Sequence record: PZ476263.1 | Source: a phage | Reading direction: 5' to 3' (one strand) | DNA length: 64,000 nucleotides | Shown here: piece by piece, positions 308 to 38,273 of the stretch | How positions within the stretch are numbered: position 1 is the stretch's first letter | Layout of the letters: each line of letters starts with the position of its first letter | Notes under the pieces: generated by a model | What the model saw: the letters and a program-made list of their open reading frames with translations, nothing else | The model's database searches: none | Told to the model about the DNA's origin: nothing | Position numbers and translations under genes: made by a program

Positions 308-1345
308 TTATTTTGCAACATTTCCAGGAATTAGTTGTCGATGCTGGACAAAACCTTTCAAGTTACCACTCCAGAAATTACCATCACGATCTACATGGGT
401 AATTCCTTCTTCCCAACTGGCAGGATCCCAAGCCACATTCACCATTGGAACATTAGGGATAAAATCTTCCTCTGTTTCAGCGATCTCTTTAGCTTGGTGT
501 TCAAAAGGAGACGCGTGTACCTTTTTACCACCCACAAGTCGAGAATAAATATCTAAAGCTTTATCTTTTGTACTGTCAAGTCGGCGATAACTTACCTGAC
601 CGCAGCAAGAAGAGGAAATTCGTAAAGCCTCTTCTTCACTAAGCATAACGGGCTTGCCATCCTCATCCTCTACATAATAACCAGAGAATACGAAACAGTC
701 ATCACCACACAATCCAATATTTTCGTAAGCATGTTCAACATATGGAGTATGCCAAACACCCTTTTCCAATTTTTCTGGATGAGAAGCATCATACGCTTCT
801 TTCATTTTCTTTGCAAGAACTTCGATTGTTGGATCTGCATCTGCATCTACACGCAACCAGAAGAAATTTTCAAACTCTGTTGCTGTAACTACCGTCTTCA
901 TCATTTGAAAAGGTTCGATCAGTCGGTTAGCAATTTGCTTATGATATCCTGCCGTTTCAAATCGTTCAGCCCATTCCGATGCAGACTCTGCCGCTTTAAC
1001 CCAAGCTTCTCGGCCTGTACAGAAAAGATTGTGAGCCAGACCATCTTCACCATCAACCCAATCATACCAAACTTTACCGTCGTGTTCCACACCATGATCT
1101 TGCATACCTGGTTTGTTAGCCCCAAATCGAACAGGCATTGCTGTGTTATTACGAACAAGCTCAATCATCTTCTTGATCGGAACTGCACGAGAAGACATTG
1201 CGTTTCGACTAAACAGTCGATGGGTCATCAACTCAGAATGAATAAAACGAGGATACGTCAATTCAAAAGTTGTGATTCGAGAATTTGTTACCGTACCAAT
1301 AGAGTCTGCAATAATTTTAACTTCAATTTGATTCAGCTTGTCCAC
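308..1345 (-). CDS. thyX: ThyX-like flavin-dependent thymidylate synthase (divergent motif THR-x7-S instead of RHR-x7-S)
   Basis: 345 aa ORF; segment FIHSELMTHRLFSRNAMSSRA matches ThyX signature region; GTG start with AGGAG RBS. Confidence 0.5.
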   Translation of the reverse strand: MDKLNQIEVKIIADSIGTVTNSRITTFELTYPRFIHSELMTHRLFSRNAMSSRAVPIKKMIELVRNNTAMPVRFGANKPGMQDHGVEHDGKVWYDWVDGEDGLAHNLFCTGREAWVKAAESASEWAERFETAGYHKQIANRLIEPFQMMKTVVTATEFENFFWLRVDADADPTIEVLAKKMKEAYDASHPEKLEKGVWHTPYVEHAYENIGLCGDDCFVFSGYYVEDEDGKPVMLSEEEALRISSSCCGQVSYRRLDSTKDKALDIYSRLVGGKKVHASPFEHQAKEIAETEEDFIPNVPMVNVAWDPASWEEGITHVDRDGNFWSGNLKGFVQHRQLIPGNVAK

Positions 1346-1348
1346 TTA

Positions 1349-1576
1349 TTACTCCTTATTCTTTTCTTTAAGTACATTCAAATTATATGGTAGATAGCCT
1401 TCTAATTCTAACCAATCACCTTTTTCATTAATATATTCTAAAGATTCAATCTTGTCACCCTTTTTCTTTAGAACATTTAAAACTTGATCAACATCAAGAG
1501 AGTTATCGGAAAGCTGAAGTTTATCATCAACATACATACCTTCCCAATCATACCCTCGGAATATTACAATTTTCAT
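1349..1576 (-). CDS. hypothetical protein
   Basis: 75 aa ORF tightly packed in minus-strand operon. Confidence 0.4.
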   Translation of the reverse strand: MKIVIFRGYDWEGMYVDDKLQLSDNSLDVDQVLNVLKKKGDKIESLEYINEKGDWLELEGYLPYNLNVLKEKNKE

Positions 1577-1758
1577 TTTAATCTCCGTATCTTATAATCA
1601 ACTGTCACATTATGCATGACTTTAAGGTACATGTCAAACACTTCTTTGCACATATCACTTCTTACCCTGAAGGAAGCAAGAATGCTTCCATTTTCAGATG
1701 ATAAGATCTCTACATACTCTCCGTACTTAACAATCCATCTTCCCTTTCCACACTTCAT
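1573..1758 (-). CDS. hypothetical protein
   Basis: 61 aa ORF, 4-nt overlap with neighbours (translational coupling). Confidence 0.35.
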   Translation of the reverse strand: MKCGKGRWIVKYGEYVEILSSENGSILASFRVRSDMCKEVFDMYLKVMHNVTVDYKIRRLK

Positions 1759-2372
1759 TGCCCCTTCCCTAAAATAAAGTCACGAATACGAAGCCAACAC
1801 ATGGTTTCCAAGTCATATTGGCAACGAGGCTCTTCTTTCTGTGTAAAAGGAGTATCGTATTTAATCTTAACAACATGATCACCAAATTGATTCAAGAATT
1901 CATTACGGTCATCGATAATGTAAGAACCTGCAACACCCGCCTTATATTTAGTAGCATAAAAACCACAACCGTCTGTTCCGCCATCAAGGTCCAACAACGG
2001 GAAATGACGTTTTAAGAAACGTACCTTACTGGAGAAGTGACCCTTCTTGCAATAAGAGACGAATCGAATCGGATGACCAGCATTATACAGATCCGTAATC
2101 GCTTGTACAGCATTTTCTATAGGCAGCATCTTATCATATAAGAAAGGATCTTCCCAATAATCATACGGCTGAATCATCTTCTTACATCGGTCAGGGAAAT
2201 AAACAGAAAGGTTATAATCAAAGTACCCCTTCTCTTCAAGATCCTTGTTCATCATCTCAGCATTTGGTTCGGTTCCATAAACCTCCGTCATCCACTTCAT
2301 CCAAGGCCAGCCAGACTCTACGATAGTAAGATCAACATCAATGATGATCGCTGGTTTATTCATAATCGGCAT
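1755..2372 (-). CDS. HAD-family 5'(3')-deoxyribonucleotidase-like phosphatase
   Basis: N-terminal IIIDVDLT (DxDxT HAD motif I); 205 aa; nucleotide-metabolism context. Confidence 0.5.
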   Translation of the reverse strand: MPIMNKPAIIIDVDLTIVESGWPWMKWMTEVYGTEPNAEMMNKDLEEKGYFDYNLSVYFPDRCKKMIQPYDYWEDPFLYDKMLPIENAVQAITDLYNAGHPIRFVSYCKKGHFSSKVRFLKRHFPLLDLDGGTDGCGFYATKYKAGVAGSYIIDDRNEFLNQFGDHVVKIKYDTPFTQKEEPRCQYDLETMCWLRIRDFILGKGQ

Positions 2373-2373
2373 A

Positions 2374-3003
2374 TTATTCCCCTTTGCTGGTCAGTTTAAT
2401 AATTTTACGTGCAGTTCCGCTAAGATCACCATTCACATTTTCAACTTCGAAGTAATTAAACTTCAGAGATGGGTCAAAATCTTCAGGAGAAAGATATCGA
2501 CGGGAATCCCCATCAAAATTCAGATACTCACCAGTCTCTTGATTTTTACGCGTTAGTTTGATCAAGTTAAAATTCCCTTTTGCAGCATTAATAACAGGAA
2601 CCGCTTCATCGGGGAAACCACCATCCGAAATAACAAAAGTAACATTGTAATCCGGCAAAGATTGTTCGATATCTACTAATTTTTTAGATAATGCGTCACC
2701 AAAAACAGATTCACCGAAGACTGGTTTTACTACATCTTCCGAAATGTGGATCAACCAGTTTCGTGCGGAAACTTGTTTACCTGCAACAATAAAATACGGC
2801 TGTGGAACTTCTTTATAATCACGATGATAAAGAGCATTCCAAAGTTCACGATTAATACCTGCTGTACGAATTGCGATATCGAACAACATCTCTTTAAATT
2901 CTACATGAATTCCAATTTCCTTCCCATGGAGATTCAAACAGATTTCTTCTGCTAATGCATCTTTACCAGACATTGCAGGACCGTTCAGATTGATAACTTT
3001 CAT
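2374..3003 (-). CDS. deoxynucleoside monophosphate kinase-like P-loop kinase
   Basis: N-terminal NLNGPAMSGKD Walker A-like loop as in T4-type dNMP kinases; 209 aa. Confidence 0.55.
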   Translation of the reverse strand: MKVINLNGPAMSGKDALAEEICLNLHGKEIGIHVEFKEMLFDIAIRTAGINRELWNALYHRDYKEVPQPYFIVAGKQVSARNWLIHISEDVVKPVFGESVFGDALSKKLVDIEQSLPDYNVTFVISDGGFPDEAVPVINAAKGNFNLIKLTRKNQETGEYLNFDGDSRRYLSPEDFDPSLKFNYFEVENVNGDLSGTARKIIKLTSKGE

Positions 3004-7699: not shown

Positions 7700-8209
7700 T
7701 TAAAACGCCTCCCCATAATCTTCATCATCTTGTTTAGCCTCTGGACGCTTAAATTTAAAATCCGTCCCCATGTATTCGGCAAGATAATCAATATTTAAAG
7801 ACCACTCTTTTTGACTACGCTCTCGCCATACATCAAATTCAGACTTCAAATATTCAATTGCTTCTTCACGAGTGATCCCATTAACTTTCATAAACTGACG
7901 GATCGCTCGTTCAAGTTTACCGTTCTTTTCAGCAAGACCTGGATGATGGAATTCATGACAAGGTGGACAAAGACACATCAAACCAACAAGCTTAACTTCA
8001 TCATTCTCGAATATCCAATCCTCATGACATTCTACCGGATGTTTACGTCCATTGCCACCCTGACCACCACAAATTTGACAGTGATGGTTGTGCTCTGCAT
8101 AACATTTTCGACGAACCTTGTCCCAACCTGCTTGCGTAAGATAAGAACGAAGGTTAGTATTCCAAGCTGTCTTTGGAATTACACAAATCTTGTGCTTAAT
8201 ATTTTTCAT
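7700..8209 (-). CDS. zinc-binding (HNH-like) protein, putative
   Basis: Cys/His cluster HNHHCQICGG...CHEDW...CLCPPCHEFHH. Confidence 0.3.
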   Translation of the reverse strand: MKNIKHKICVIPKTAWNTNLRSYLTQAGWDKVRRKCYAEHNHHCQICGGQGGNGRKHPVECHEDWIFENDEVKLVGLMCLCPPCHEFHHPGLAEKNGKLERAIRQFMKVNGITREEAIEYLKSEFDVWRERSQKEWSLNIDYLAEYMGTDFKFKRPEAKQDDEDYGEAF

Positions 8210-8430: not shown

Positions 8431-8772
8431 TCACTTGTTAACTATTGCAAGCATGTTACGCGGCATCTTGATAATGCATGAATCTTCCATATTGAACTGA
8501 TCAAGATAGTCAGATAAAACACAGTAGTGATGCCAATCATAATCACCAAAGAAGATTTCAATCTTTGTGATACGATCAATAACAGGATTATCGCCAACAA
8601 CCTTTTCTAAAAGCAACCCTTCAAAAATATATTCCTTATCTTTGTAAAATGTACAAAGCTTTGATGGGATGTTCATTGCCCAGCGATCACGATTTTCTGA
8701 GTTTTCAAATCTGAACAATCCAACATCTTCAACCATATCAACTGCACGAATTTCAAGAATGATTTCTTTCAT
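8431..8772 (-). CDS. hypothetical protein
   Basis: 113 aa ORF. Confidence 0.35.
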   Translation of the reverse strand: MKEIILEIRAVDMVEDVGLFRFENSENRDRWAMNIPSKLCTFYKDKEYIFEGLLLEKVVGDNPVIDRITKIEIFFGDYDWHHYCVLSDYLDQFNMEDSCIIKMPRNMLAIVNK

Positions 8773-9245
8773 TAGTAAAGGTCCTCAGAGTAAAGTTCTT
8801 TCCTGTCCTTAACGACTTCAGGATCGACTTGATTAGCATATGTTGCAATAATCATTGCTTCTTCACGAGTCCAATAATTTGAGTATTGGTCGATAAATCC
8901 TTGGTCGTCACCACAAACATGGCGCGACACAAGTTTACCACTAACTTGATCAATAACTTCAGCCATATCTTTAGAATAATGACGAGCACCAGGAATAACT
9001 AGTGCACCACCATCTTTTAATTTAAAACGATTAGCTGCACAAACAATTATTCGTTGAAACTTCCGATCTTCGTACCAATGAGCGATCTGCCAACAGATTT
9101 CAGGAACATTGTTCAACACATCCTCTTCAGTATATTTAGTAAAATCACCATAAGAATTCAATTTTGCAGCCAAACTTTCTGGAGTCTCGCGTTGCAATGC
9201 TTTATCCAGCAAGGCCAAACGTTCTTCAAATGTTAACTTGGTCAT
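8772..9245 (-). CDS. hypothetical protein
   Basis: 157 aa ORF. Confidence 0.35.
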
Positions 9246-10702: not shown

Positions 10703-11062
10703 TTAATTTTTAAAAGTTTTTTCGATCAGGGCGATAGCTTCTTTCCAGTTAGTTTCATCAACACGAAGACTCATATAATGCTGTTCCGTGTTGTCAACCA
10801 CTTCTTCAGTAACTTCTTCAAAGAATTTAAATTCTTCAGGAAGGATCTCAAAATAATCACCGCCTCCTGAATATGCCCTTTTTATGCTGCCGTTTGGAAA
10901 AACAACTGAACAAACACTACCGTAATCATCTACTAATTCCAAAACTTCGAATTGACCACCATTGTATGCAATCTTTTGAATAAGATCCTCGTTGTGAACT
11001 GAAGCATTTTTAAAATCACGAATAGTGTCGACCTTAAGTTTATATTTCTTTCCGATTTTCAT
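10703..11062 (-). CDS. hypothetical protein
   Basis: 119 aa ORF. Confidence 0.35.
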   Translation of the reverse strand: MKIGKKYKLKVDTIRDFKNASVHNEDLIQKIAYNGGQFEVLELVDDYGSVCSVVFPNGSIKRAYSGGGDYFEILPEEFKFFEEVTEEVVDNTEQHYMSLRVDETNWKEAIALIEKTFKN

Positions 11063-11656: not shown

Positions 11657-12457
11657 TTAAAAACCTCCCAGCTTTGCTTCAAAATATGTCAGCGGCTTCA
11701 TGATCTTGCCATTGCAATCTTTCCAGACTACACGATTAACACCGTTGACTTTCACAACATTACCTTTAACACCAGTATATCGACCCTTGTTACGTTTTTC
11801 AATAAGATCAGATTCCAGTTGAATCATCTCTTCAAGAGCTACATCATTCTCACTGAAATAGAAGTGCTGCTTGTAAAATTCCTTGTTGAATTCTTCAACT
11901 GTAGGAATCTTAGAATCATTAGAGTCAAGGACTTCTTCAAGTGCATCAATATAATCGAAATTAAATTTACGCATGATCTCAATTGTGTTTCGAACAACGC
12001 CGTTCGCCAGTTGTTGTCCAACATAATAAGTAAGAATGCTTAAGTTGTCAAAGATGTCTGAATTTTTCTCTGTGACGTAAGGAAAAATATCATATGGTCC
12101 ATCTTTATAAGTTTCATGCAAGCTTCGAGTTTGAAAATCTGCATAAACAGAAACAACGAAAAGATCACACAGTGCATCAATGACTTCTTTACGATTATTT
12201 TTACTAATGCCGAGTTCGTAAAGCTCATTATATTCTTCTTCTACAAGCTCCCACTGAAAGAGAAGCTCGGATGTGGATAGGGCGTGTTTACCACGCGCTG
12301 CAAAATTCCAATCAATAACACGCTGTGCACATTGAGAAACTTTTTCATTTTCGTCAATCTTTAACAGACTGCTAACAAATTCTTTCTCTTTAGTGTTCAT
12401 TTCTAGGAAATCAAACATCATACTCTCCTCTTTCTTAAGTGCAGGGCCATTATACAT
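11657..12457 (-). CDS. possible MazG-like all-alpha NTP pyrophosphohydrolase
   Basis: acidic helical motifs WELVEEEYNELYELG and EVIDALCDLFVV; weak. Confidence 0.25.
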   Translation of the reverse strand: MYNGPALKKEESMMFDFLEMNTKEKEFVSSLLKIDENEKVSQCAQRVIDWNFAARGKHALSTSELLFQWELVEEEYNELYELGISKNNRKEVIDALCDLFVVSVYADFQTRSLHETYKDGPYDIFPYVTEKNSDIFDNLSILTYYVGQQLANGVVRNTIEIMRKFNFDYIDALEEVLDSNDSKIPTVEEFNKEFYKQHFYFSENDVALEEMIQLESDLIEKRNKGRYTGVKGNVVKVNGVNRVVWKDCNGKIMKPLTYFEAKLGGF

Positions 12458-19064: not shown

Positions 19065-19140
19065 GGCCCTTTAGCTCAGTGGTTAGAGCAGGCGACTCAT
19101 AATCGCTTGGTCGCTGGTTCAAGTCCGGCAAGGGCCACCA
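19065..19140 (+). tRNA. tRNA with CAT anticodon; anticodon stem and acceptor resemble enterobacterial tRNA-Ile2 (lysidine) rather than elongator Met
   Basis: GGCCCTT acceptor, GCTC/GAGC D-stem, GGCGA-CTCATAA-TCGCT anticodon arm, TTCAAGT T-loop, encoded CCA. Confidence 0.8.
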
Positions 19141-19157
19141 CTCAATAGTTTATTTAC

Positions 19158-19249
19158 AAGATCATTCAGTAATTAAGCGAATGCCGGAAGCAGAACCGGA
19201 TCAACAAATGCGTACGGGTGTCATCGCCACCTAGCAACTGAATGATCTT
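19158..19249 (+). other. long stem-loop RNA element (13-bp perfect inverted repeat flanking 66 nt), followed by U-run; possible terminator or small RNA
   Basis: AAGATCATTCAGT (19158-19170) and ACTGAATGATCTT (19237-19249); internal CCGG-aagcagaa-CCGG hairpin. Confidence 0.45.
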
Positions 19250-19332
19250 TTAAATTCTCTTAACCTCATAAAATCCTTGACATAATAAGAAATTCCTGAT
19301 AACATCTCTATATCGACTTAATTGAGGTGCTT

Positions 19333-19707
19333 ATGCCTAAAGCTGAAATCGTTACTAGAAAACGGGGTCGGCCTACTACAGAGGAAAGTATCGCTATCAA
19401 CACCGAGAAGGCGATTCTTCATGCTCGTTCAGAGTTTGCAAGACTTACTCCTCAGGCGATTAAGACTCTGGAAGGTCTACTCACTTCCGGTACAGAGAAA
19501 GTTAAAGAAACTACTGCGAAGTATATTCTTGAACAGGCTGAAAAAGCTAACAATCTGTACACGATGGAAGATAATGAGGAAGATTTAGCGGGAGGTTCAA
19601 CTTCTGCGGATTCTGATACTCATAAAGGCCCTTCTGATGTATTTAAGGATGCAATTCCTCTTACTACTCAAATCAGAGAGTATAAAATTGCAGAAGGTGA
19701 AAACTAA
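19333..19707 (+). CDS. hypothetical protein with N-terminal basic KRGRPT segment
   Basis: 124 aa from ATG at 19333. Confidence 0.4.
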   Translation: MPKAEIVTRKRGRPTTEESIAINTEKAILHARSEFARLTPQAIKTLEGLLTSGTEKVKETTAKYILEQAEKANNLYTMEDNEEDLAGGSTSADSDTHKGPSDVFKDAIPLTTQIREYKIAEGEN

Positions 19708-19728
19708 AGGCTCTTAGGGGCCTTTTAT
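19707..19728 (+). terminator. putative intrinsic terminator
   Basis: AGGCTC-ttag-GGGCCT hairpin followed by TTTTATT. Confidence 0.4.
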
Positions 19729-19946
19729 TAATAGTTCTTTTTAATGTAGTTGCTTGGTGTAATTTTTCGGCAGATGGCTGCAACCATCCTATCGATAACT
19801 CATAGTTAGTGCTGCAAACACTGGCTACCTTAAAGAGAATTTAACTCGTCGAATAAGGAAGATGCTGATCTCAAAGTGAGGTCACTTACCGCAAGGGGTG
19901 TGCATAGACTCCCGCTTCCGAATAGACTATGTGGCGAGATGTATTT

Positions 19947-20028
19947 GGGGACGTGGCAGAGCGGTCGAATGCGCCTGACTGTAAATCAGGTATCCCACAC
20001 GGTGGTTCGAATCCATCCGGCCCCACCA
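19947..20028 (+). tRNA. tRNA-Tyr (GTA)
   Basis: CCTGA-CTGTAAA-TCAGG anticodon arm, GGTGG-TTCGAAT-CCATC T-arm, acceptor CGGCCCC-A-CCA; overall like enterobacterial tRNA-Tyr. Confidence 0.75.
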
Positions 20029-20282
20029 AATTAAGAAGCAGGGTCGCTACCTGCAAGTCGTCGGACTGAGATTCCCTGAATAAGACCCGACTTTAAGGCG
20101 TACAAATGTTCGGTTTAAAGTCCCTTATCTCACAGTCGAAACGGCGCATCCTATTCAGCCGTGATGTGATGTAATCACTGACCTCTTTGAAGGATCATGG
20201 CATCCTATACAAAAAAAAAACCTGAATAATTTAGGTTTTAATGCCTGGGGGTTCGTAGCCCTATTACTAAGAGGACTTAACT

Positions 20283-20492
20283 ATGTTTACTATTAAAATT
20301 ATTGATATCGATGGAAATGAGACGGGTGTTTCAACAAGGCACTACAGATGGTACTCAAAAATGAATATTTTTGATGTGGAGGGTGGAGAATCTGTTTCTG
20401 TACCACCAAAAAGTCGTGCTTATGTAATGAATGACAAAGGAATAACCATCGGTAGATACACAAATACAGCGGATCAACGCGTTCTTAATTAA
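20283..20492 (+). CDS. hypothetical protein
   Basis: 69 aa ORF between tRNAs. Confidence 0.35.
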   Translation: MFTIKIIDIDGNETGVSTRHYRWYSKMNIFDVEGGESVSVPPKSRAYVMNDKGITIGRYTNTADQRVLN

Positions 20493-20493
20493 A

Positions 20494-20568
<75 letters not shown>

Positions 20569-20667
20569 AACACATATCCATCTGACGCGTTTATGGGGTT
20601 GACCTGATCAATCTTCTCCTAATTTCGTGTGAAGACATCATGATTGTTGGGATGGATAAACTTATTT

Positions 20668-20742
20668 TGGGGATTAGCCAAGCGGTAAGGCATCGGATTT
20701 TGATTCCGACATTCACTGGTTCGAGTCCAGTATCCCCAGCCA
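20668..20742 (+). tRNA. tRNA-Gln (TTG)
   Basis: TGGGGAT...AAGCGGTAAGG...CGGATTTTGATTCCG...GGTTCGAGTCC...CCCCAGCCA; very close to E. coli tRNA-Gln. Confidence 0.85.
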
Positions 20743-20747
20743 ATTAA

Positions 20748-20824
20748 CGGTGTGTAGCGCAGCTTGGTAGCGCATCTGGTTTGGGGCCAGAGGGCCGTTG
20801 GTTCGAATCCAACTACACCGACCA
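20748..20824 (+). tRNA. tRNA-Pro (TGG)
   Basis: CGGTGTG TAGCGCAGCTTGGTAGCGCA TCTGG-TTTGGGG-CCAGA ... GGTTCGAATCC ... CACCGACCA; very close to E. coli tRNA-Pro. Confidence 0.85.
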
Positions 20825-29940: not shown

Positions 29941-32900
29941 ATGTCTGAATACAATGATAAGGTCGTAGAGGCTTTTGTTACTGCCCCAGATCCTGTCGTT
30001 ACTACCAGTGGTGGTGGAGTTATTTTTAACGGTATTGAAACTCGTGATACCGTTTCTACCACTTTGGTTGGTGATGGTACTGTAACTGCGCCTCTTCAAG
30101 CACAAATTCGTGTTTCTCGTCGAGCAGGTAACGCCCTTCAGGTAGTTCAAACTGAAAGTGAACAAGGTCTGTTTGCATCGGCAGGCGAAGCTAAAGTTTC
30201 CGTATCTGCTGTCAACGTTGCAAAATATGTTACAGCTGAAGAAGCTGCAAGTCAAGGTGATGCTGCACTGGAAGGTGTTTTAGTAGAACCTGTTCACTTA
30301 ACCACCACAGCAGCAACATCTGGATTACAGATCAGTGCAGATCCTCTGACTGGTAAAAAATCTCGAATCGGTCTTGTTGTTTCACCTGCTGCCACTAACG
30401 CACTGTCTTTAGAAGAAGATGGTTTGTCTGTTAAAGTGTCTCCAGCTATTGATAACAACATTCAAGTTCGTGAAGGTGCTCTGTATGTTCCTCCGAGCAA
30501 TGCAGAAGTATCTCCTGATTCCGACAACAAGCTTGAATTACGTTCCAATGGTCTTTATGTTGCCACTGTAAAAGGTGACAAAGGCGACCAGGGTGAACAA
30601 GGCCCAGCGGGTCCTCAAGGTGAAGTAGGTCCAGAAGGTCCGCAAGGTCCGGCTGGAGAGAAGGGTGACCAAGGTGAACAAGGACCTCAAGGTGACAAAG
30701 GGGATCAGGGCGTAGCTGGTCCAGCAGGTCCACAAGGTGCTCGTGGTCCAGAAGGTCCTCGTGGTGAAACTGGCTTGGGCATTAATGTTCTGAGTTCTTT
30801 AGACTCGGAAGATCAGTTGCCTTCTGTTGTTGATTTACAGAATGGTGATACCTATGTAATCGGACAAAACTTCTTTACTGTCATCACTGAAGGTGGTGTA
30901 AAACAGTGGAGAAATATTGGTAACTTCGCAGGCCCAGAAGGTCAATCTGCATTTGAAGTTGCTGAGACTGCTGGATTTGTTGGTACTGTAGATGATTGGT
31001 TAGCAAGTCTTCGCGGTGCTGATGGTATCGGTCTTCAGCTTCTTGGCGCTCTGCGTCGTGTGGAAGACTTACCGGAAGAAGGCAACCGACAAGGCGATGC
31101 TTATATCATTCAGGAACAAATGTATGTTTGGACTGGTGATGTAGATCGTTGGCAGATTGTAGGTCAGATTGGCCCAGAAGGTCGTTCTGCTTATCAGGTT
31201 TGGTTGGCGAATGGCAATACTGGATCACAAGTTGACTTCCTTAACTCACTCAAGGGTGAAAAGGGAGATACGGGTGAGCAAGGTCCTCAGGGGGAAAGGG
31301 GCGAAGACGGTAAAAACGCAAACGCAATCAACATCCTTGGTAGTGTAGCTGATGAAGCTTCTCTTCCAGAAGGCGCTGATGCAGGTGATGCCTACCTTAT
31401 TGGGACTAACGTCTTTGTATCAGACGGCGCTGGTAACTGGGAAAATTTGGGATCTTTCCAAGGCCCACAAGGTGATCAGGGTGTTAAAGGTGACAAAGGC
31501 GATAAGGGAGACAAGGGCGATAAAGGTGATAAAGGTGATGACAACTACACCATTGCTGTTGCTAACGGTTTCGTCGGATCTGTAACTGAATACCTTGCGT
31601 CCATTAAGGGTGAGAAAGGTGATGTAGGTGCAACTGGTCCCCGTGGTCTTACTGGTCCACAGGGTGAACAGGGTCCCGTCGGTGCTGGTCTGAATATTCT
31701 CGGATCTTTCGAGGATGAGTCTGAACTGCCAACTTCTGGAATTACCGAAGGTGATGCCTACCTGATCCAAGGATTCCTTTATATCTTTACTGGAGGTTCT
31801 TTTAAGAACGTTGGTGAAGTTAAGGGTCCTAAAGGAGATCAGGGCGATGTAGGACCTGCGGGTCCACAGGGTGAGCAGGGTATTGCGGGACCACAAGGCC
31901 AGCAAGGTTTAGTTGGACCTGCGGGTCCTCAAGGCGAGACTGGTCCACAAGGCCCAGAAGGTCCAGAAGGTCCTCAAGGTCCTCAAGGAGCGCAGGGTGA
32001 AAAAGGCGATATTGGTAGTGGCCTTATTGCTCGTGGAACTGTTGAAACATCTGTGCAATTGCCTAGTGACGCTGCAATCGGTGATTTTTACGTTGTAACT
32101 TCCGAAGGTATTGGCTATGCTTGGGACGGTTCTGATTGGGTAGCCACAGGATTAGCACAAGGACCTATAGGTCCTGCTGGAGCTGATGGTGCCAAGGGTG
32201 AAAAAGGCGACAAAGGAGATCAAGGAGAAAAAGGCGACGCTGGTACAGGTCTGACTCCGAAAGGTCTTGTTGACACATCTTCTGACTTACCTTCTTCTGC
32301 TGAAGTTGGTGATTTCTACGTAGCTGCTGACACTGGTATTGGTTATGCTTGGGACGGCACTTCTTTTGTAGAGTCCGGCACTGTACGTGGACCACAAGGT
32401 GAAGCGGGTCCTCAGGGCGAAGCAGGTCCAGAAGGTCCGCAAGGCCCTCAGGGTGGAATAGGTCCCGTTGGACCAGAAGGTCCGCAAGGTATCGCTGGCC
32501 CTAAAGGGGATAAAGGTGACGTTGGTAGTGGTTTAATCCCTCGTGGAACAATCCCGACTATGGCAGACCTTCCTTTGACTGGTGAAGTTGGTGACTTTTA
32601 CGTAGCCAATGATACGGGAATCGGCTATGCCTTTAACGGGACTGCTTTTATAGAGTCTGGGGTTGCTCGCGGCCCTCAGGGCGAGAAGGGTGAAACTGGT
32701 GCAGTTGGACCGCAGGGTCCGGTTGGTGCTACTGGTGCAATTGGACCGCAGGGTCCTCAGGGTGCTCAAGGTGAACAGGGCATTCAAGGTGAACGAGGAG
32801 AAATCGGTCCTCAGGGTGAGAAAGGTGACACTGGAGAGCAGGGTCCTCAAGGGGATATCGGTCCAGGGGTTGAGATCATCGGTAAATTCGATAACTCTTC

Positions 32901-33729
32901 CGAACTTCCTTCTACTGGTCAATTAGGTCAAGGTTATCTGATCCAAGGTGATTTCTGGGGATGGACAGGTACTGCTTATGAAAACTTAGGTCGTATTCAA
33001 GGTCCTGTAGGCCCTGTAGGTCCGACTGGTAACCAAGGTCCACAAGGTCCTGTCGGTGTTAAAGGGGATAAAGGTGACCAAGGTACTTTGTGGATTGTAT
33101 TCGCAAGGGATCCTTTGGTAAGTGATGGTCGTGTCAACGACTTCTTCCTGAACTCTTCTACTTTGGAATACTTCCGTAAAACGTCTGCAACTAACTGGGC
33201 TTCCCTCGGATACTTGGGTGGTGGTAACGTTTATGATGCACCTGGGGATGGTAAAGCTTACGTCCGTCAAGATCAGGGCTGGTCTGAATTAACTTACCCT
33301 GTCAATGAAGCACCTACCGATGGCGGTGATTATGTTCGTAAGAATGGTACTTGGAGCACTCTGGTTATTCCGGTAACGGAAGCTCCGCTGGAAGGTGGAT
33401 TCTACGTCCGTGAAAACGGTGAGTGGGTGAAACTCGACAAATACGACTTGCGTGTAATTGCTTCTACTGGTGTGGTTGATGCATCTCAGGCCAACAGCTG
33501 GACTTTGGACGGAACAACCAGTAAGTCCTTGGTGATTAATAACCTTCCCGAAGGCCGAGCAATGACTCTTGTACTGAGATTCACTGGTAACGGTGGAAAC
33601 ATTACTTGGGACTCTAAGATCGCATGGTCTAATGGTACAGCACCTGTGCTGGGAGTTACCCGTACTATCCTGACTCTGTTCTGGGATGGTGAGTTCCTTA
33701 CTGGTACTCAAGCAATGACTGTTGGTTAA
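29941..33729 (+). CDS. collagen-like repeat fiber protein (1262 aa)
   Basis: multiple G-X-Y runs ([25 protein letters not shown]...) alternating with eight ~35-aa modules (LP..G..GD.Y.....G..W); C-terminal triple YVR.NG.W repeats. Confidence 0.7.
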   Translation: MSEYNDKVVEAFVTAPDPVVTTSGGGVIFNGIETRDTVSTTLVGDGTVTAPLQAQIRVSRRAGNALQVVQTESEQGLFASAGEAKVSVSAVNVAKYVTAEEAASQGDAALEGVLVEPVHLTTTAATSGLQISADPLTGKKSRIGLVVSPAATNALSLEEDGLSVKVSPAIDNNIQVREGALYVPPSNAEVSPDSDNKLELRSNGLYVATVKGDKGDQGEQGPAGPQGEVGPEGPQGPAGEKGDQGEQGPQGDKGDQGVAGPAGPQGARGPEGPRGETGLGINVLSSLDSEDQLPSVVDLQNGDTYVIGQNFFTVITEGGVKQWRNIGNFAGPEGQSAFEVAETAGFVGTVDDWLASLRGADGIGLQLLGALRRVEDLPEEGNRQGDAYIIQEQMYVWTGDVDRWQIVGQIGPEGRSAYQVWLANGNTGSQVDFLNSLKGEKGDTGEQGPQGERGEDGKNANAINILGSVADEASLPEGADAGDAYLIGTNVFVSDGAGNWENLGSFQGPQGDQGVKGDKGDKGDKGDKGDKGDDNYTIAVANGFVGSVTEYLASIKGEKGDVGATGPRGLTGPQGEQGPVGAGLNILGSFEDESELPTSGITEGDAYLIQGFLYIFTGGSFKNVGEVKGPKGDQGDVGPAGPQGEQGIAGPQGQQGLVGPAGPQGETGPQGPEGPEGPQGPQGAQGEKGDIGSGLIARGTVETSVQLPSDAAIGDFYVVTSEGIGYAWDGSDWVATGLAQGPIGPAGADGAKGEKGDKGDQGEKGDAGTGLTPKGLVDTSSDLPSSAEVGDFYVAADTGIGYAWDGTSFVESGTVRGPQGEAGPQGEAGPEGPQGPQGGIGPVGPEGPQGIAGPKGDKGDVGSGLIPRGTIPTMADLPLTGEVGDFYVANDTGIGYAFNGTAFIESGVARGPQGEKGETGAVGPQGPVGATGAIGPQGPQGAQGEQGIQGERGEIGPQGEKGDTGEQGPQGDIGPGVEIIGKFDNSSELPSTGQLGQGYLIQGDFWGWTGTAYENLGRIQGPVGPVGPTGNQGPQGPVGVKGDKGDQGTLWIVFARDPLVSDGRVNDFFLNSSTLEYFRKTSATNWASLGYLGGGNVYDAPGDGKAYVRQDQGWSELTYPVNEAPTDGGDYVRKNGTWSTLVIPVTEAPLEGGFYVRENGEWVKLDKYDLRVIASTGVVDASQANSWTLDGTTSKSLVINNLPEGRAMTLVLRFTGNGGNITWDSKIAWSNGTAPVLGVTRTILTLFWDGEFLTGTQAMTVG

Positions 33730-33739
33730 TTTTCAATAA

Positions 33740-33760
33740 GGGGGCTTCGGCCCCCATTTT
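33740..33760 (+). terminator. UUCG-tetraloop hairpin, possible terminator/attenuator
   Basis: GGGGGC-ttcg-GCCCCC followed by ATTTT then AAGGAG RBS. Confidence 0.4.
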
Positions 33761-33771
33761 AAGGAGAAGTA

Positions 33772-34407
33772 ATGAGTATTAAAATTTATGGCTGGGTTCC
33801 AATGATTCGTATGTCCGACATGCGTTATCCTGTTTACCTTTCCGACTTTAAAGCTGAATATACCAACGTATCTACCGGAAGCTTCGTCTATGAAGAGGGT
33901 ATGGCTGAATTTGGTTATTACCCTGTTCTTGATGTTGATATTCCGCAAGGTGATGTAGTTACCGAAGGAGCACCAGTTCAAGGTGAGGATGGCAAATGGT
34001 ATAAATCTTGGAACTCTCGTGACTACACCGAAGAAGAGATCGCTGATAACCTTCGTCGTCAAAAAGAACAATTAATCTACTCTGCCAAATCTAATTTCGA
34101 AAATGAAAACATGGGGGGTGTAGAAGTTGATGGTAGTTTCTATTCTGTAGATTCAAATTCACTCTCTCTTTATCATTCTATTCTCTCTGTTGCAGAAATG
34201 TCTGAAGACGACAAATTGTTCAGTCTGTTAACTTACGACAATAAGGTTATCGAACATCTCCGTTTAGATGCAATCGAACTTATTGAAGAAATAATTTCCG
34301 TGTATGTAGAAAGCTACAATAATATGACGGCTTTCATTAAAGAAGTGAATGTTGCAAAAAATATGGAAGAATTACCTTCCGTACCTGAGTCTTTCCGCAT
34401 TGCTTAA
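33772..34407 (+). CDS. hypothetical protein between fiber genes (possible fiber assembly factor)
   Basis: 211 aa ORF, acidic C-terminal half. Confidence 0.35.
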   Translation: MSIKIYGWVPMIRMSDMRYPVYLSDFKAEYTNVSTGSFVYEEGMAEFGYYPVLDVDIPQGDVVTEGAPVQGEDGKWYKSWNSRDYTEEEIADNLRRQKEQLIYSAKSNFENENMGGVEVDGSFYSVDSNSLSLYHSILSVAEMSEDDKLFSLLTYDNKVIEHLRLDAIELIEEIISVYVESYNNMTAFIKEVNVAKNMEELPSVPESFRIA

Positions 34408-34419
34408 TCGAGGTAATAT

Positions 34420-36036
<1,617 letters not shown>

Positions 36037-36074
36037 TTTAATTATAATTCACAGGGACGTGATTAGGAGATAAT

Positions 36075-37658
36075 ATGACGAATTCTGTAGTAGGTATGGC
36101 AGGTCACAATAATGGTGTATTTTATGGATACTCTCTTTATGACTTGGAGCAAAAAAGAAAGATAGCCTTTAAAGATTTAACTAAGGGTGACTCAGGGGCG
36201 AAGGGCGATAAGGGTGATCCTGGTCCAGAAGGTCCACAAGGTGATAAAGGAGATACCGGAGAGCAAGGCCCTGTAGGACCTCAAGGTCCTGCTGGTGCAC
36301 CAGGGCAACAAGGTGTGCCTGGTGAAAGAGGACCTCAAGGTCCCGAAGGCCCACAAGGCCCTCAAGGCCCAATTGGTCCCGAAGGACCAGTAGGACCAAT
36401 CGGCTCCCAAGGTCCCGAAGGTCCTAAAGGAGAGCAAGGTGAACAAGGCCCTTCTGGATCTCAAGGTCCTCAAGGATTAAAAGGGGATACAGGGGCACAA
36501 GGACCTCAAGGTCCCGTTGGACCCAGAGGAGAGACAGGTGCAACAGGACCTGTTGGACCTAAAGGGGACACAGGCCCAACAGGTCCAAAAGGAGAAACGG
36601 GTGAACAGGGACCCATTGGTCCGCAAGGACCTAAGGGTGATACAGGTCCCGTGGGTCCTGCAAGCTTAACCTTCAGAGGTTTCTATGAACCTCTTGAAGA
36701 ATACAACGAAAAGGATACAGTAGCTTATAATGGTTCTACTTATTTTGCGTTAAGAACCAGTACAGGAGCAACACCGGATATTTCTCCCGATGACTGGGCA
36801 TTACTTGCAGCTGAAGGTGCAGTTGGACCACAAGGACCTATGGGACCAGAGGGTCCGCAAGGTATCGCTGGTGCTCAAGGTCAGGAAGGCCCTATAGGAC
36901 CGCAAGGTGAACAGGGTCCGGTTGGACCTGTTGGCCCACAAGGCCCACAAGGTCCTGCGGGTCAGGAAGGAATAGAAGGCCCTCAGGGACCTCAAGGAGA
37001 AGAAGGCCCTATGGGACCTCAGGGACCACAAGGGATTGTAGGACCAACAGGTCCACAAGGCCCTCAAGGCCCCAAAGGGGACACTGGTGCAGTTGGACCA
37101 CAAGGTCCTCAAGGCCAACAAGGTCTTGATGGTCCACAAGGCCCTGCTGGTCCGCAAGGCGAAAGAGGTGTTACTGGACTAACCGGACCCCAAGGTCCCA
37201 AGGGTGATATCGGCCCTGTGGGTCCGGCTGGCCCTCAAGGTAAGGATGGTAATTCTTACACTATCTACAACTGGGGCAACATATCAACGGGCTATGGTGA
37301 GATGGTAATACCTGGTGTTACTAACACAGTATTCAGAGTGAGACGAGTAGGAACCACATTAGAATACAGTGTACTTAGTAAAGGTGGTGCGAATAGATAC
37401 CTTGACTTCCATACCATAATTCCAGCCCCCTCTACAGGGGGCGCTGTAATTATCCAATCAGGAAATACAACATTGACATCCTCCAGCTCTTTAAATGTTG
37501 TTACATCTGCACCTCCTGGTCTTGGTTTTCGACCAATATTCATCTCTTTAAAAGAGTGGGGAGATAGGGCAATAGTAACCATAGAGGTTTTCCACACAGG
37601 TAGAAGTGGAGATTCCAGTTACCCAATACATGTTCGTATGCTAACGACGAAGTATTGA
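36075..37658 (+). CDS. collagen-like fiber protein, paralog B (527 aa)
   Basis: N-terminal [25 protein letters not shown] runs, central [12 protein letters not shown] module, different C-terminal domain. Confidence 0.65.
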
Positions 37659-37662
37659 CATG

Positions 37663-37690
37663 AAAGCCACCTTCGGGTGGCTTTATTTTT
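37663..37690 (+). terminator. intrinsic terminator (UUCG tetraloop)
   Basis: AAAGCCACC-ttcg-GGTGGCTTT followed by ATTTTTAT. Confidence 0.65.
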
Positions 37691-37748
37691 ATACAAATGA
37701 CTTTCTTTTAATTTTGTGATAACATGTTTTAATACACTGGAGGATAAT

Positions 37749-38273
37749 ATGACTGATGCAGAAGTAGTACAGCTTGTTCGTAACTTTTTAGGCGGACTTA
37801 CTGAAGATGAAATGCCTGATAGCATGATTCTGTTTTTCTATAATAAATGGAAGGTTTGTTACGACTTAGAAAACAGGCCAGATCAATTTTCAATTATTCT
37901 GTACAATACCGTGCTTGATTGCGTACGTTGGCTTATTGTTCAGGAAGTTTCAAGTGGAGCTTCTGCAATTCGTGAACGATTCGAAAAAGTCGGTGATGAA
38001 ACCATATCCGTTAAATACGGGTCTAACTCTGGAAACTGGCAAGACTTCCTCGACTGGTTGACCGAACATCCTGAATATATTGATCCCTGCCTTAAGGATA
38101 ATGCCGTAGGTTCTGGGCTTGGTCTAATTATTATCGGTGGAACAAGAAAGGGGGAATTTGCAAGAGTTAAAAGAAATCGTGATTCTTTCAATGGCTTTAT
38201 GGAACCAGGTATTTTCCCTGCTGCGGGTACAAGAACTGGTGTCAAAAAGCGTAATCCTTGGATGGTCAACTAA
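37749..38273 (+). CDS. head-tail joining / neck protein (putative)
   Basis: ATG at 37749 after GGAGG RBS; position between fiber and tail genes. Confidence 0.3.
   Translation: MTDAEVVQLVRNFLGGLTEDEMPDSMILFFYNKWKVCYDLENRPDQFSIILYNTVLDCVRWLIVQEVSSGASAIRERFEKVGDETISVKYGSNSGNWQDFLDWLTEHPEYIDPCLKDNAVGSGLGLIIIGGTRKGEFARVKRNRDSFNGFMEPGIFPAAGTRTGVKKRNPWMVN

Follow-up and report, generated by a model that had tools for sequence, protein, structure and literature searches.

Phage rV5 has a deoxynucleoside triphosphate (dNTP) supply module that includes a thymidylate synthase (gp106) and the ribonucleotide reductases NrdAB and NrdDG. We analyzed the orthologous arrangement in a 64,000-nucleotide stretch of phage DNA (sequence record PZ476263.1; called the window below), which comes from an Escherichia myophage of the Vequintavirinae (rV5-like) with phages A7_1 and UPEC06 as its nearest records. 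There is no difference of substance between the two arrangements, and the rV5 paper names the same enzyme set as nucleotide-metabolism complement (PMC3606486). Our subject is the ThyX-family gene at positions 308..1345 (minus strand), whose 345-amino-acid product, a putative flavin-dependent thymidylate synthase (FDTS), is the ortholog of rV5 gp106 and is 98% identical to its A7_1 counterpart. The protein belongs to a clade in which the ThyX chain is rearranged and several canonical active-site residues are replaced. We consider the locus to be, most likely, an ordinary supply module for thymidine monophosphate (dTMP) and dNTPs, built around a structurally unusual ThyX.

Canonical ThyX is a homotetramer whose active sites form where three subunits meet. 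As represented by Thermotoga maritima (Tm) TM0449, Mycobacterium tuberculosis ThyX, and PBCV-1 A674R, it places the segment equivalent to Tm residues 20 to 62, with the H53 helices, before the core that carries the RHR signature (Tm 61 to 199); in the phage protein, this order is reversed. PolB, a ThyX paralog that methylates both uridine monophosphate (UMP) and deoxyuridine monophosphate (dUMP) in polyoxin biosynthesis (PDB 4P5A/4P5B), gives a collinear match over chain residues 68 to 225. In the pathways to 5-hydroxymethyluracil (hmU) and hypermodified thymidine (SPO1, ViI, and M6), as in the window, the enzymes found near the one that modifies dUMP include a nucleotide kinase, a nucleotidase, and a protein resembling a pyrophosphohydrolase; these pathways also require a 5-hydroxymethyldeoxyuridine (5-hmdU) DNA kinase and transferases. 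These pathways begin with a ThyA-family dUMP hydroxymethyltransferase (PMC8989533).

A preliminary description of the window, made from its letters alone, had read adjacent open reading frames (ORFs) at 308-3003 as encoding a ThyX-like enzyme, a HAD nucleotidase, and a deoxynucleoside monophosphate (dNMP) kinase, with a possible MazG-like protein at a distance. All three ORFs are present on the minus strand, at 308..1345, 1755..2372, and 2374..3003, and the four identities are supported.

Segment order of the ThyX-like protein

Profile searches placed the protein in the ThyX family. Pfam Thy1 (PF02511) matched with 39.3 bits (gathering cutoff, 24.8), covering profile positions 53 to 190 of 191 only, and phrog_85 (thymidylate synthase) matched with an E value of 5.6e-107. 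The Pfam and NCBIfam ThyX models aligned residues 19 to 191 only, starting at profile position 53 to 60. A profile and structure check of the kind proposed in the preliminary description bore the assignment out: an AlphaFold2 (AF2) monomer model predicted the three-dimensional ThyX fold with very high confidence, and hhalign matched the protein to canonical ThyX. Single-sequence phmmer searches against the PDB gave no match for the ThyX-like protein, the HAD protein, the kinase, or the MazG-like ORF.

The core of the protein, residues 24 to 190 (776..1276, minus strand), is collinear with Tm 61 to 199 by HMMER and by hhalign, which gave P = 5e-6 with a canonical ThyX profile built from 119 sequences (mostly Thermotogae-like). 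It holds T41-H42-R43, S51, R53, R141 (Tm R147), N160 (N169), and R165 (R174). The relocated N-terminal segment, residues 242 to 286 (488..622, minus strand), corresponds to Tm 20 to 62 by hhalign and by non-collinear HMMER domains; it carries S252 (S30), H277 (H53), S279 (T55), E282 (E58), and H283 (H59), all of which belong to the invariant set that the C-terminal ~155 residues have of their own. Within it, HASPFEH (residues 277 to 283; 497..517, minus strand) is the counterpart of the canonical H53-E-T-P-F-E58-H59 flavin/folate loop and is an intein site in homologs.

Several comparisons recovered the relocated segment. When the family profile was compared with the PDB, T. maritima ThyX was matched in three non-collinear pieces, the C-terminal part of the phage protein aligning to native residues 19 to 61 (LSAVRAARVSF...HGHETPFEH). 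Against the single T. maritima sequence, hhalign set residues 242 to 286 on Tm 20 to 62 (P = 1.7e-4) with a score of 31.7, versus 12.3 ± 2.6 in 200 shuffles (maximum, 24.5), none of which reached the real score. The 119-sequence canonical profile matched residues 242 to 284 on Tm 20 to 60 (P = 5.2e-6), a match as strong as that of the core. Further profile-profile matches of the segment ranged from P = 3.3e-7 to P = 2.1e-10, the latter (at 97% probability) being obtained when bacterial members were added, and for bacterial members plain BLASTP reveals the segment (E = 2e-7). Profile methods were needed here, because nine C-terminal segments searched singly against Pfam gave one weak Thy1 match only (profile positions 12 to 56, E = 0.2). 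As judged from these alignments, the architecture is a circular-permutation-like transposition in which the N-terminal segment has moved behind the catalytic core.

The unusual length of the protein was correctly described; it is about 100 to 125 residues above canonical ThyX (220 residues in T. maritima). Members of the permuted clade exceed canonical ThyX by 40 to 125 residues, and the phage protein falls below the cutoff of the NCBIfam equivalog model TIGR02170. The extra length consists mainly of the relocated segment and loops, not an added domain. Alignment gaps, conservation, and AF2 strands at residues 75 to 109 delimit a clade-specific, beta-rich insertion at residues 75 to 110 (1016..1123, minus strand), which contains an invariant G80-M81 and a length-variable part and has no counterpart in T. 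maritima ThyX. Profile alignment likewise detected no canonical counterpart for the N-terminal strand (residues 1 to 23), the linker (191 to 240), or the tail (287 to 345).

Active-site residues and inteins

Residues 34 to 54 of the ThyX-like protein are FIHSELMTHRLFSRNAMSSRA, and the signature variant, THRLFSRNAMSSRA, occupies residues 41 to 54 (1184..1225, minus strand). Hidden Markov model (HMM) alignment to T. maritima ThyX equates T41-H42-R43 with R78-H79-R80 and S51 and R53 with S88 and R90. Compared with the canonical RHRxxSxNxxSxRY, R78 is replaced by T41 and Y91 by A54, so that R-H-R-x7-S becomes T-H-R-x7-S-S-R-A, which has lost the first Arg and the Tyr and retains the His, the second Arg, the Ser, and the following Arg. 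The preliminary description had reported this Thr within an "RHR dUMP-binding motif." The substitution stands; the dUMP-binding role does not, as R78 of T. maritima ThyX faces the N1/C2=O of FADH- and stabilizes the reduced flavin there (PMC11940539).

Both replacements are features of the clade, in which T41 is conserved at 96 to 98% and A54 at 99 to 100%. In a 100-sequence alignment (38 to 75% identity to the query), T41 was present in 96% of members, and A54, at the position of canonical Tyr91, was invariant. The residues that they replace, R78 and Y91, are invariant among the 119 canonical sequences.

Canonical contacts that are kept, with the phage residue in parentheses, are S30 (S252), H53 (H277), E58 (E282), H59 (H283), H79 (H42), R80 (R43), S83 (S46), N85 (N48), S88 (S51), R90 (R53), R147 (R141), N169 (N160), and R174 (R165). 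Apart from R80, the equivalent of each is at least 92% conserved in the clade. The R80 equivalent is 88 to 100% conserved: in 68 bacterial members position 43 is invariably Arg, whereas ~12% of those from phages and metagenomes have K, G, N, C, S, T, or Q there. In T. maritima ThyX, S30 and S88 form hydrogen bonds to the flavin C4=O, H53 stacks onto flavin and folate, and N85 holds H53 (PMC11940539). Replaced contacts are Q75 (E38), R78 (T41), E86 (A49), Y91 (A54), N163 (T154), and R165 (T156), and all six canonical residues are invariant in the 119-sequence sample. The substitutes E38, T41, A54, and T156 are at least 96% conserved in the clade, and A49 and T154 less so. Y91 has been proposed as the general acid of T. 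maritima ThyX, and its mutation makes flavin oxidation ~1,000-fold slower (PMC11940539). Phage and bacterial members, at an overall identity of 35 to 50%, share ~35 positions with a conservation of 90% or more.

A second candidate for the first signature Arg was considered and set aside. Q334-H335-R336 lies near the C terminus (338..346, minus strand); R336 is kept in 318 of 320 family members, and its canonical counterpart is not securely assigned. The idea that R336 is a displaced R78, in a vestigial second RHR, comes from a single BLASTP alignment that put R336 on Tm R78 and is speculative. Profile-profile alignments of the relocated segment end at Tm 62, with no significant match for residues 284 to 345, 1 to 30, or 191 to 240, and R336 is retained in all five members in which position 41 is R or K, so the two positions do not covary.

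Approximately 18 of the 150 best family representatives carry inteins of the HNH or LAGLIDADG type, which bring them to lengths of 520 to 680 amino acids (P0127, P0135, P0142, P0145, P0153, P0163, P0173, P0180, P0193, P0209, P0222, P0235, P0242, P0250, P0255, P0257, and P0263). Double-length family members had been entertained as informative fusions and were rejected on finding that the extra length is intein. There are about five insertion sites, all within conserved motifs: after H36, after THR43-45, within S51-S52, near R165-D169, and between H277 and S279. Placement within motifs is typical of essential catalytic sites and supports a model in which both halves of the chain would form the catalytic center; HxSPFEH is among the interrupted motifs.

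The clade in phages and bacteria

Homologs of the permuted protein were found in 1,035 phage records, among them rV5-, phi92-, ICP1-, PAK_P1-, N4-, and phiCbK-like phages, compared with up to 2,682 phage records with canonical-type ThyX. Exhaustive searching returned 4,935 clusters at 50% identity. T-H-R occurs in 226 of the 264 family proteins scanned and R-H-R in 2. In this clade, both the Thr and the added length are fixed hallmarks, not peculiarities of one phage, and the Thr is no lineage-specific sign of new chemistry in this particular phage.

The clade is also found at at least 495 loci in prokaryotic genomes, where one genome per species was scanned. Many of these loci are on megabase contigs or complete chromosomes (examples are L065 from Svornostia abyssi, L087 from Lustribacter, L063, and L075). 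The complete genomes with the gene include S. abyssi NZ_CP088295.1, Eremiobacterota OY969579.1, Lustribacter OZ255842.1, and Actinomycetes OY970241.1. Carriers include Eremiobacterota/Vulcanimicrobiota, Solirubrobacterales such as S. abyssi, Kineosporia, and Saccharibacteria, among others. The bacterial proteins are shorter (263 to 300 amino acids), and their invariant residue set is identical to that of the phage members; among 76 that were extracted, the signature begins with THR in 75 and with SHR in 1 and is always followed by SSRA. Five bacterial loci, situated on large contigs or complete chromosomes, were examined for neighbors. They showed housekeeping genes, namely gltX (glutamyl-tRNA synthetase), glmU, msrA, rplY (L25), rpsM (S13), a thiamine pyrophosphate (TPP) enzyme gene, and nuoN, and no prophage genes. 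Given this widespread recurrence, the housekeeping neighbors, and the conservation, the bacterial permuted ThyX would most simply be the thymidylate synthase of its carriers.

Operon and likely function

In the window, the ThyX-like gene is the last of five minus-strand genes. In the order of transcription, these encode a P-loop dNMP-kinase-like protein (209 amino acids; 2374..3003), a HAD-superfamily phosphatase (205 amino acids; 1755..2372), a 61-amino-acid ORF of phrog_4903 (function unknown; 1573..1758, overlapping its neighbors by 4 bases at each end), a 75-amino-acid ORF of phrog_19048 (function unknown; 1349..1576, 3 bases from the ThyX gene), and the ThyX-like protein. Because the spacing from kinase to ThyX is 1, -4, -4, and 3 bases, the genes constitute a single, tightly packed, translationally coupled operon. 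This spacing and the homologs of the ThyX-like protein across phage records show that the genes are real and not chance ORFs. The ThyX-like gene has a GTG start with the ribosome-binding site AAGGAG upstream.

We assign the kinase and the HAD protein, from profiles and motifs, at the family level only. The kinase matched phrog_139 (deoxynucleoside monophosphate kinase; E = 1.2e-35) and has the Walker A motif GPAMSGKD at residues 8 to 15, in keeping with the P-loop pattern GxxxxGK(S/T/D) of T4 gp1-like phage dNMP kinases; Pfam, NCBIfam, and the PDB gave no match for it. The HAD protein is probably a 5'(3')-deoxyribonucleotidase (NT5C-like): it matched Pfam NT5C just under the cutoff (24.6 bits versus 24.8; E = 2.7e-5) as well as phrog_420, its motifs DVDLT (residues 12 to 16) and IIDD (residues 152 to 155) are intact, and its UPEC06 ortholog is annotated 5'(3')-deoxyribonucleotidase. 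Outside the operon, at a distance of 8.6 kb and among replication/recombination genes, the ORF at 11657..12457 (minus strand) encodes a possible MazG-like nucleotide pyrophosphohydrolase (phrog_671, E = 7.6e-18; Pfam PRA-PH marginal, E = 0.094) with the acidic cluster EEEYNE...EVIDALCD.

On a contig that encodes an identical ThyX-like protein, the genes run in the order kinase, HAD, ThyX, NrdA, NrdB, glutaredoxin, PhoH, NrdD, and NrdG, and UPEC06 has the same arrangement running from the operon into the ribonucleotide reductase genes. Beyond the equivalent of the window's left end, two related contigs (L002:18092-20434 and L003:18251-21038) have nrdD split into ORFs of 386 and 312 amino acids, with an additional 169-amino-acid ORF between the two parts on L003, which suggests an intron or a homing-endonuclease insertion.

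Other features of the window were recorded in passing. The replication genes are accompanied by a free-standing HNH homing-endonuclease gene in their midst (7700-8209, minus strand; phrog_5200, E = 2e-69); the equivalent place on L003 is occupied by other genes, including a NADAR-domain gene, and the spot is thus variable. Two further minus-strand genes encode small T4-type proteins, function unknown: a phrog_839 protein (8772-9245), whose counterpart on L002 carries a T4_Y16D domain, and a member of the Pfam FRD2 family (10703-11062; E = 7.6e-20). Five tRNA genes (Met-CAT, Tyr-GTA, Gly-TCC, Gln-TTG, and Pro-TGG) are clustered at 19065-20824 (plus strand). The GC content is 0.48 to 0.49 at 30001-38000, inside the plus-strand structural/tail-fiber region, compared with 0.36 to 0.42 elsewhere.

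Outside the rV5 group, genes close to that of the permuted ThyX include nrdA (ICP1) and those for a class II ribonucleotide reductase (Pakpunavirus), a deoxycytidine triphosphate (dCTP) deaminase (an N4-like phage), and a deoxycytidine monophosphate (dCMP) deaminase (N4-like roseophages). The partners that recur across phage groups are thus ribonucleotide reductase and dCTP/dCMP deaminase, which belong to the ordinary thymidine triphosphate (dTTP) pathway. A search found no ThyA-fold protein (hydroxymethylases included; E ≤ 1), dUTPase, or second ThyX in the window or in the whole UPEC06 genome, so that the permuted ThyX is the only candidate thymidylate synthase in either.

We infer from this context a pathway in which the permuted ThyX would most likely carry out the flavin- and methylenetetrahydrofolate-dependent C5-methylation of dUMP to dTMP. 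The kinase would then convert dTMP to dTDP and pass other dNMPs onward, and the HAD deoxyribonucleotidase may balance or trim the dNMP pool or act in salvage. Together with the adjoining aerobic and anaerobic ribonucleotide reductases, the module would supply canonical dNTPs for phage DNA replication.

Some observations weigh against so ordinary a function. The equivalog model TIGR02170 gave 33 bits, far under its cutoff of 87.9, and R78, Y91, and R165, which are regarded as important in T. maritima ThyX, are absent. Several residues that are invariant in the clade lack a canonical counterpart (R33, G80-M81, H135-K136-Q137, H199-x-P201, and R336). The active site is thus remodeled and could support altered chemistry. 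All thymidylate synthase labels in the clade rest on homology; the open-access literature and PDB searches yielded no assay or solved structure of any permuted member. Among 80 loci with up to 6 kb of flank per side, a single one has a second thymidylate synthase: a 3.5-kb Saccharibacteria contig (L058:1293-3498, from a Candidatus Nanosynbacter metagenome-assembled genome) carries the permuted ThyX gene at 1293-2201 beside thyA and folA, the thyA homolog lying 170 bp downstream (48% identity to E. coli ThyA) and followed by a convergent folA fragment. This neighbor could reflect redundancy or a non-identical function; the arrangement itself links the permuted ThyX to thymidylate metabolism. 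Weighing these points, we still regard ordinary dTMP supply as the probable role of the module. For the more sweeping proposition, that the clade is a genuine thymidylate synthase that is the sole one in whole bacterial lineages and over 1,000 phages and works without residues thought essential, we judge the chances to be about even.

An unlikely alternative is a ThyX paralog whose substrate or cofactor use has shifted, so that the clade would methylate UMP or dCMP in the manner of PolB or use another reductant or one-carbon donor and would not strictly turn dUMP into dTMP. PolB serves antibiotic biosynthesis in Streptomyces, whereas the phage protein is permuted and encoded in a dNTP-supply operon. 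It is very unlikely that the clade as a whole is something other than an ordinary dTMP synthase, performing a modified flavin-dependent C5-alkylation that releases, for example, 5-hydroxymethyl-dUMP or acts on another pyrimidine nucleotide. Were that so, an unrecognized nucleotide would be made by some bacteria and by many phages, this one among them.

The preliminary description had raised a non-canonical base in this phage, reasoning from a cluster of kinase, nucleotidase, pyrophosphatase, and altered ThyX. In its explicit form, the altered ThyX would make a non-canonical pyrimidine nucleotide such as 5-hydroxymethyl-dUMP by hydrating, instead of reducing, the exocyclic-methylene intermediate; the kinase would phosphorylate the modified nucleotide, and removal of the canonical competitor would fall to the HAD and MazG-like enzymes, on the pattern of SPO1-type phages. 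The loss of R78 and Y91, residues of the flavin redox and acid-base steps, speaks for it, and the enzyme set formally resembles that of hmU phages such as SPO1. However, over 1,000 phages of many groups share the same hallmarks, as do bacterial genes that stand among housekeeping genes where their loci were examined. In the ICP1-, Pakpunavirus-, and N4-like phages examined, no kinase or nucleotidase is annotated beside the ThyX gene, the MazG-like gene of the window stands well apart from the operon, and the canonical-DNA phage T5 has genes for both a dNMP kinase and a deoxyribonucleotidase. The ThyA-fold enzyme with which the hmU pathways begin was found neither in the window nor in UPEC06. 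The UPEC06 annotation lists no hydroxymethylase, glycosyltransferase, or other hypermodification enzyme and two small DNA methyltransferases only, and no 5-hmdU DNA kinase or glycosyl- or amino-acid transferase is annotated in UPEC06 or A7_1, where most genes are labeled hypothetical and not all were profile scanned. In literature on relatives of this phage, Vequintavirinae and related phages have been reported as "exceptionally susceptible" to restriction-modification systems (PMC8594841); a paper on Danish wastewater phages contains no DNA-composition data for Vequintavirinae. The evidence thus points away from a modified base, which we consider highly improbable.

That the protein is a degenerate, non-catalytic ThyX relic, such as a nucleotide-binding regulator, would suit the loss of R78, Y91, and R165 and the low equivalog score but deserves hardly any credence beside the ~35 positions conserved across phage and bacterial members, the inteins within motifs, the confidently predicted fold, and the translationally coupled operon.

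We therefore return to the supply of ordinary dTMP and dNTPs. Part of this is already known: the family has long been labeled thymidylate synthase in databases, and rV5 gp106 has no more than a routine ortholog in the window. A possibly new point is that a whole branch consists of a rearranged ThyX without R78 and Y91; searches of open-access text found neither a description of a permuted ThyX nor any assay of N4 gp30, rV5 gp106, or the ICP1 enzyme. For this phage, the locus is a standard rV5-type dNTP supply block that gives no good reason to expect a modified base. For the family, it exposes a very large and uniformly misdescribed ThyX branch with a rearranged chain and without R78 and Y91, which are central to current mechanistic models. 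If its members are true thymidylate synthases, they would reveal which ThyX residues are dispensable and would represent a second architecture of an enzyme pursued as an antibacterial target. RHRx7S motif filters and equivalog models would then be missing some of the thymidylate synthases of phages and of phyla such as Eremiobacterota.

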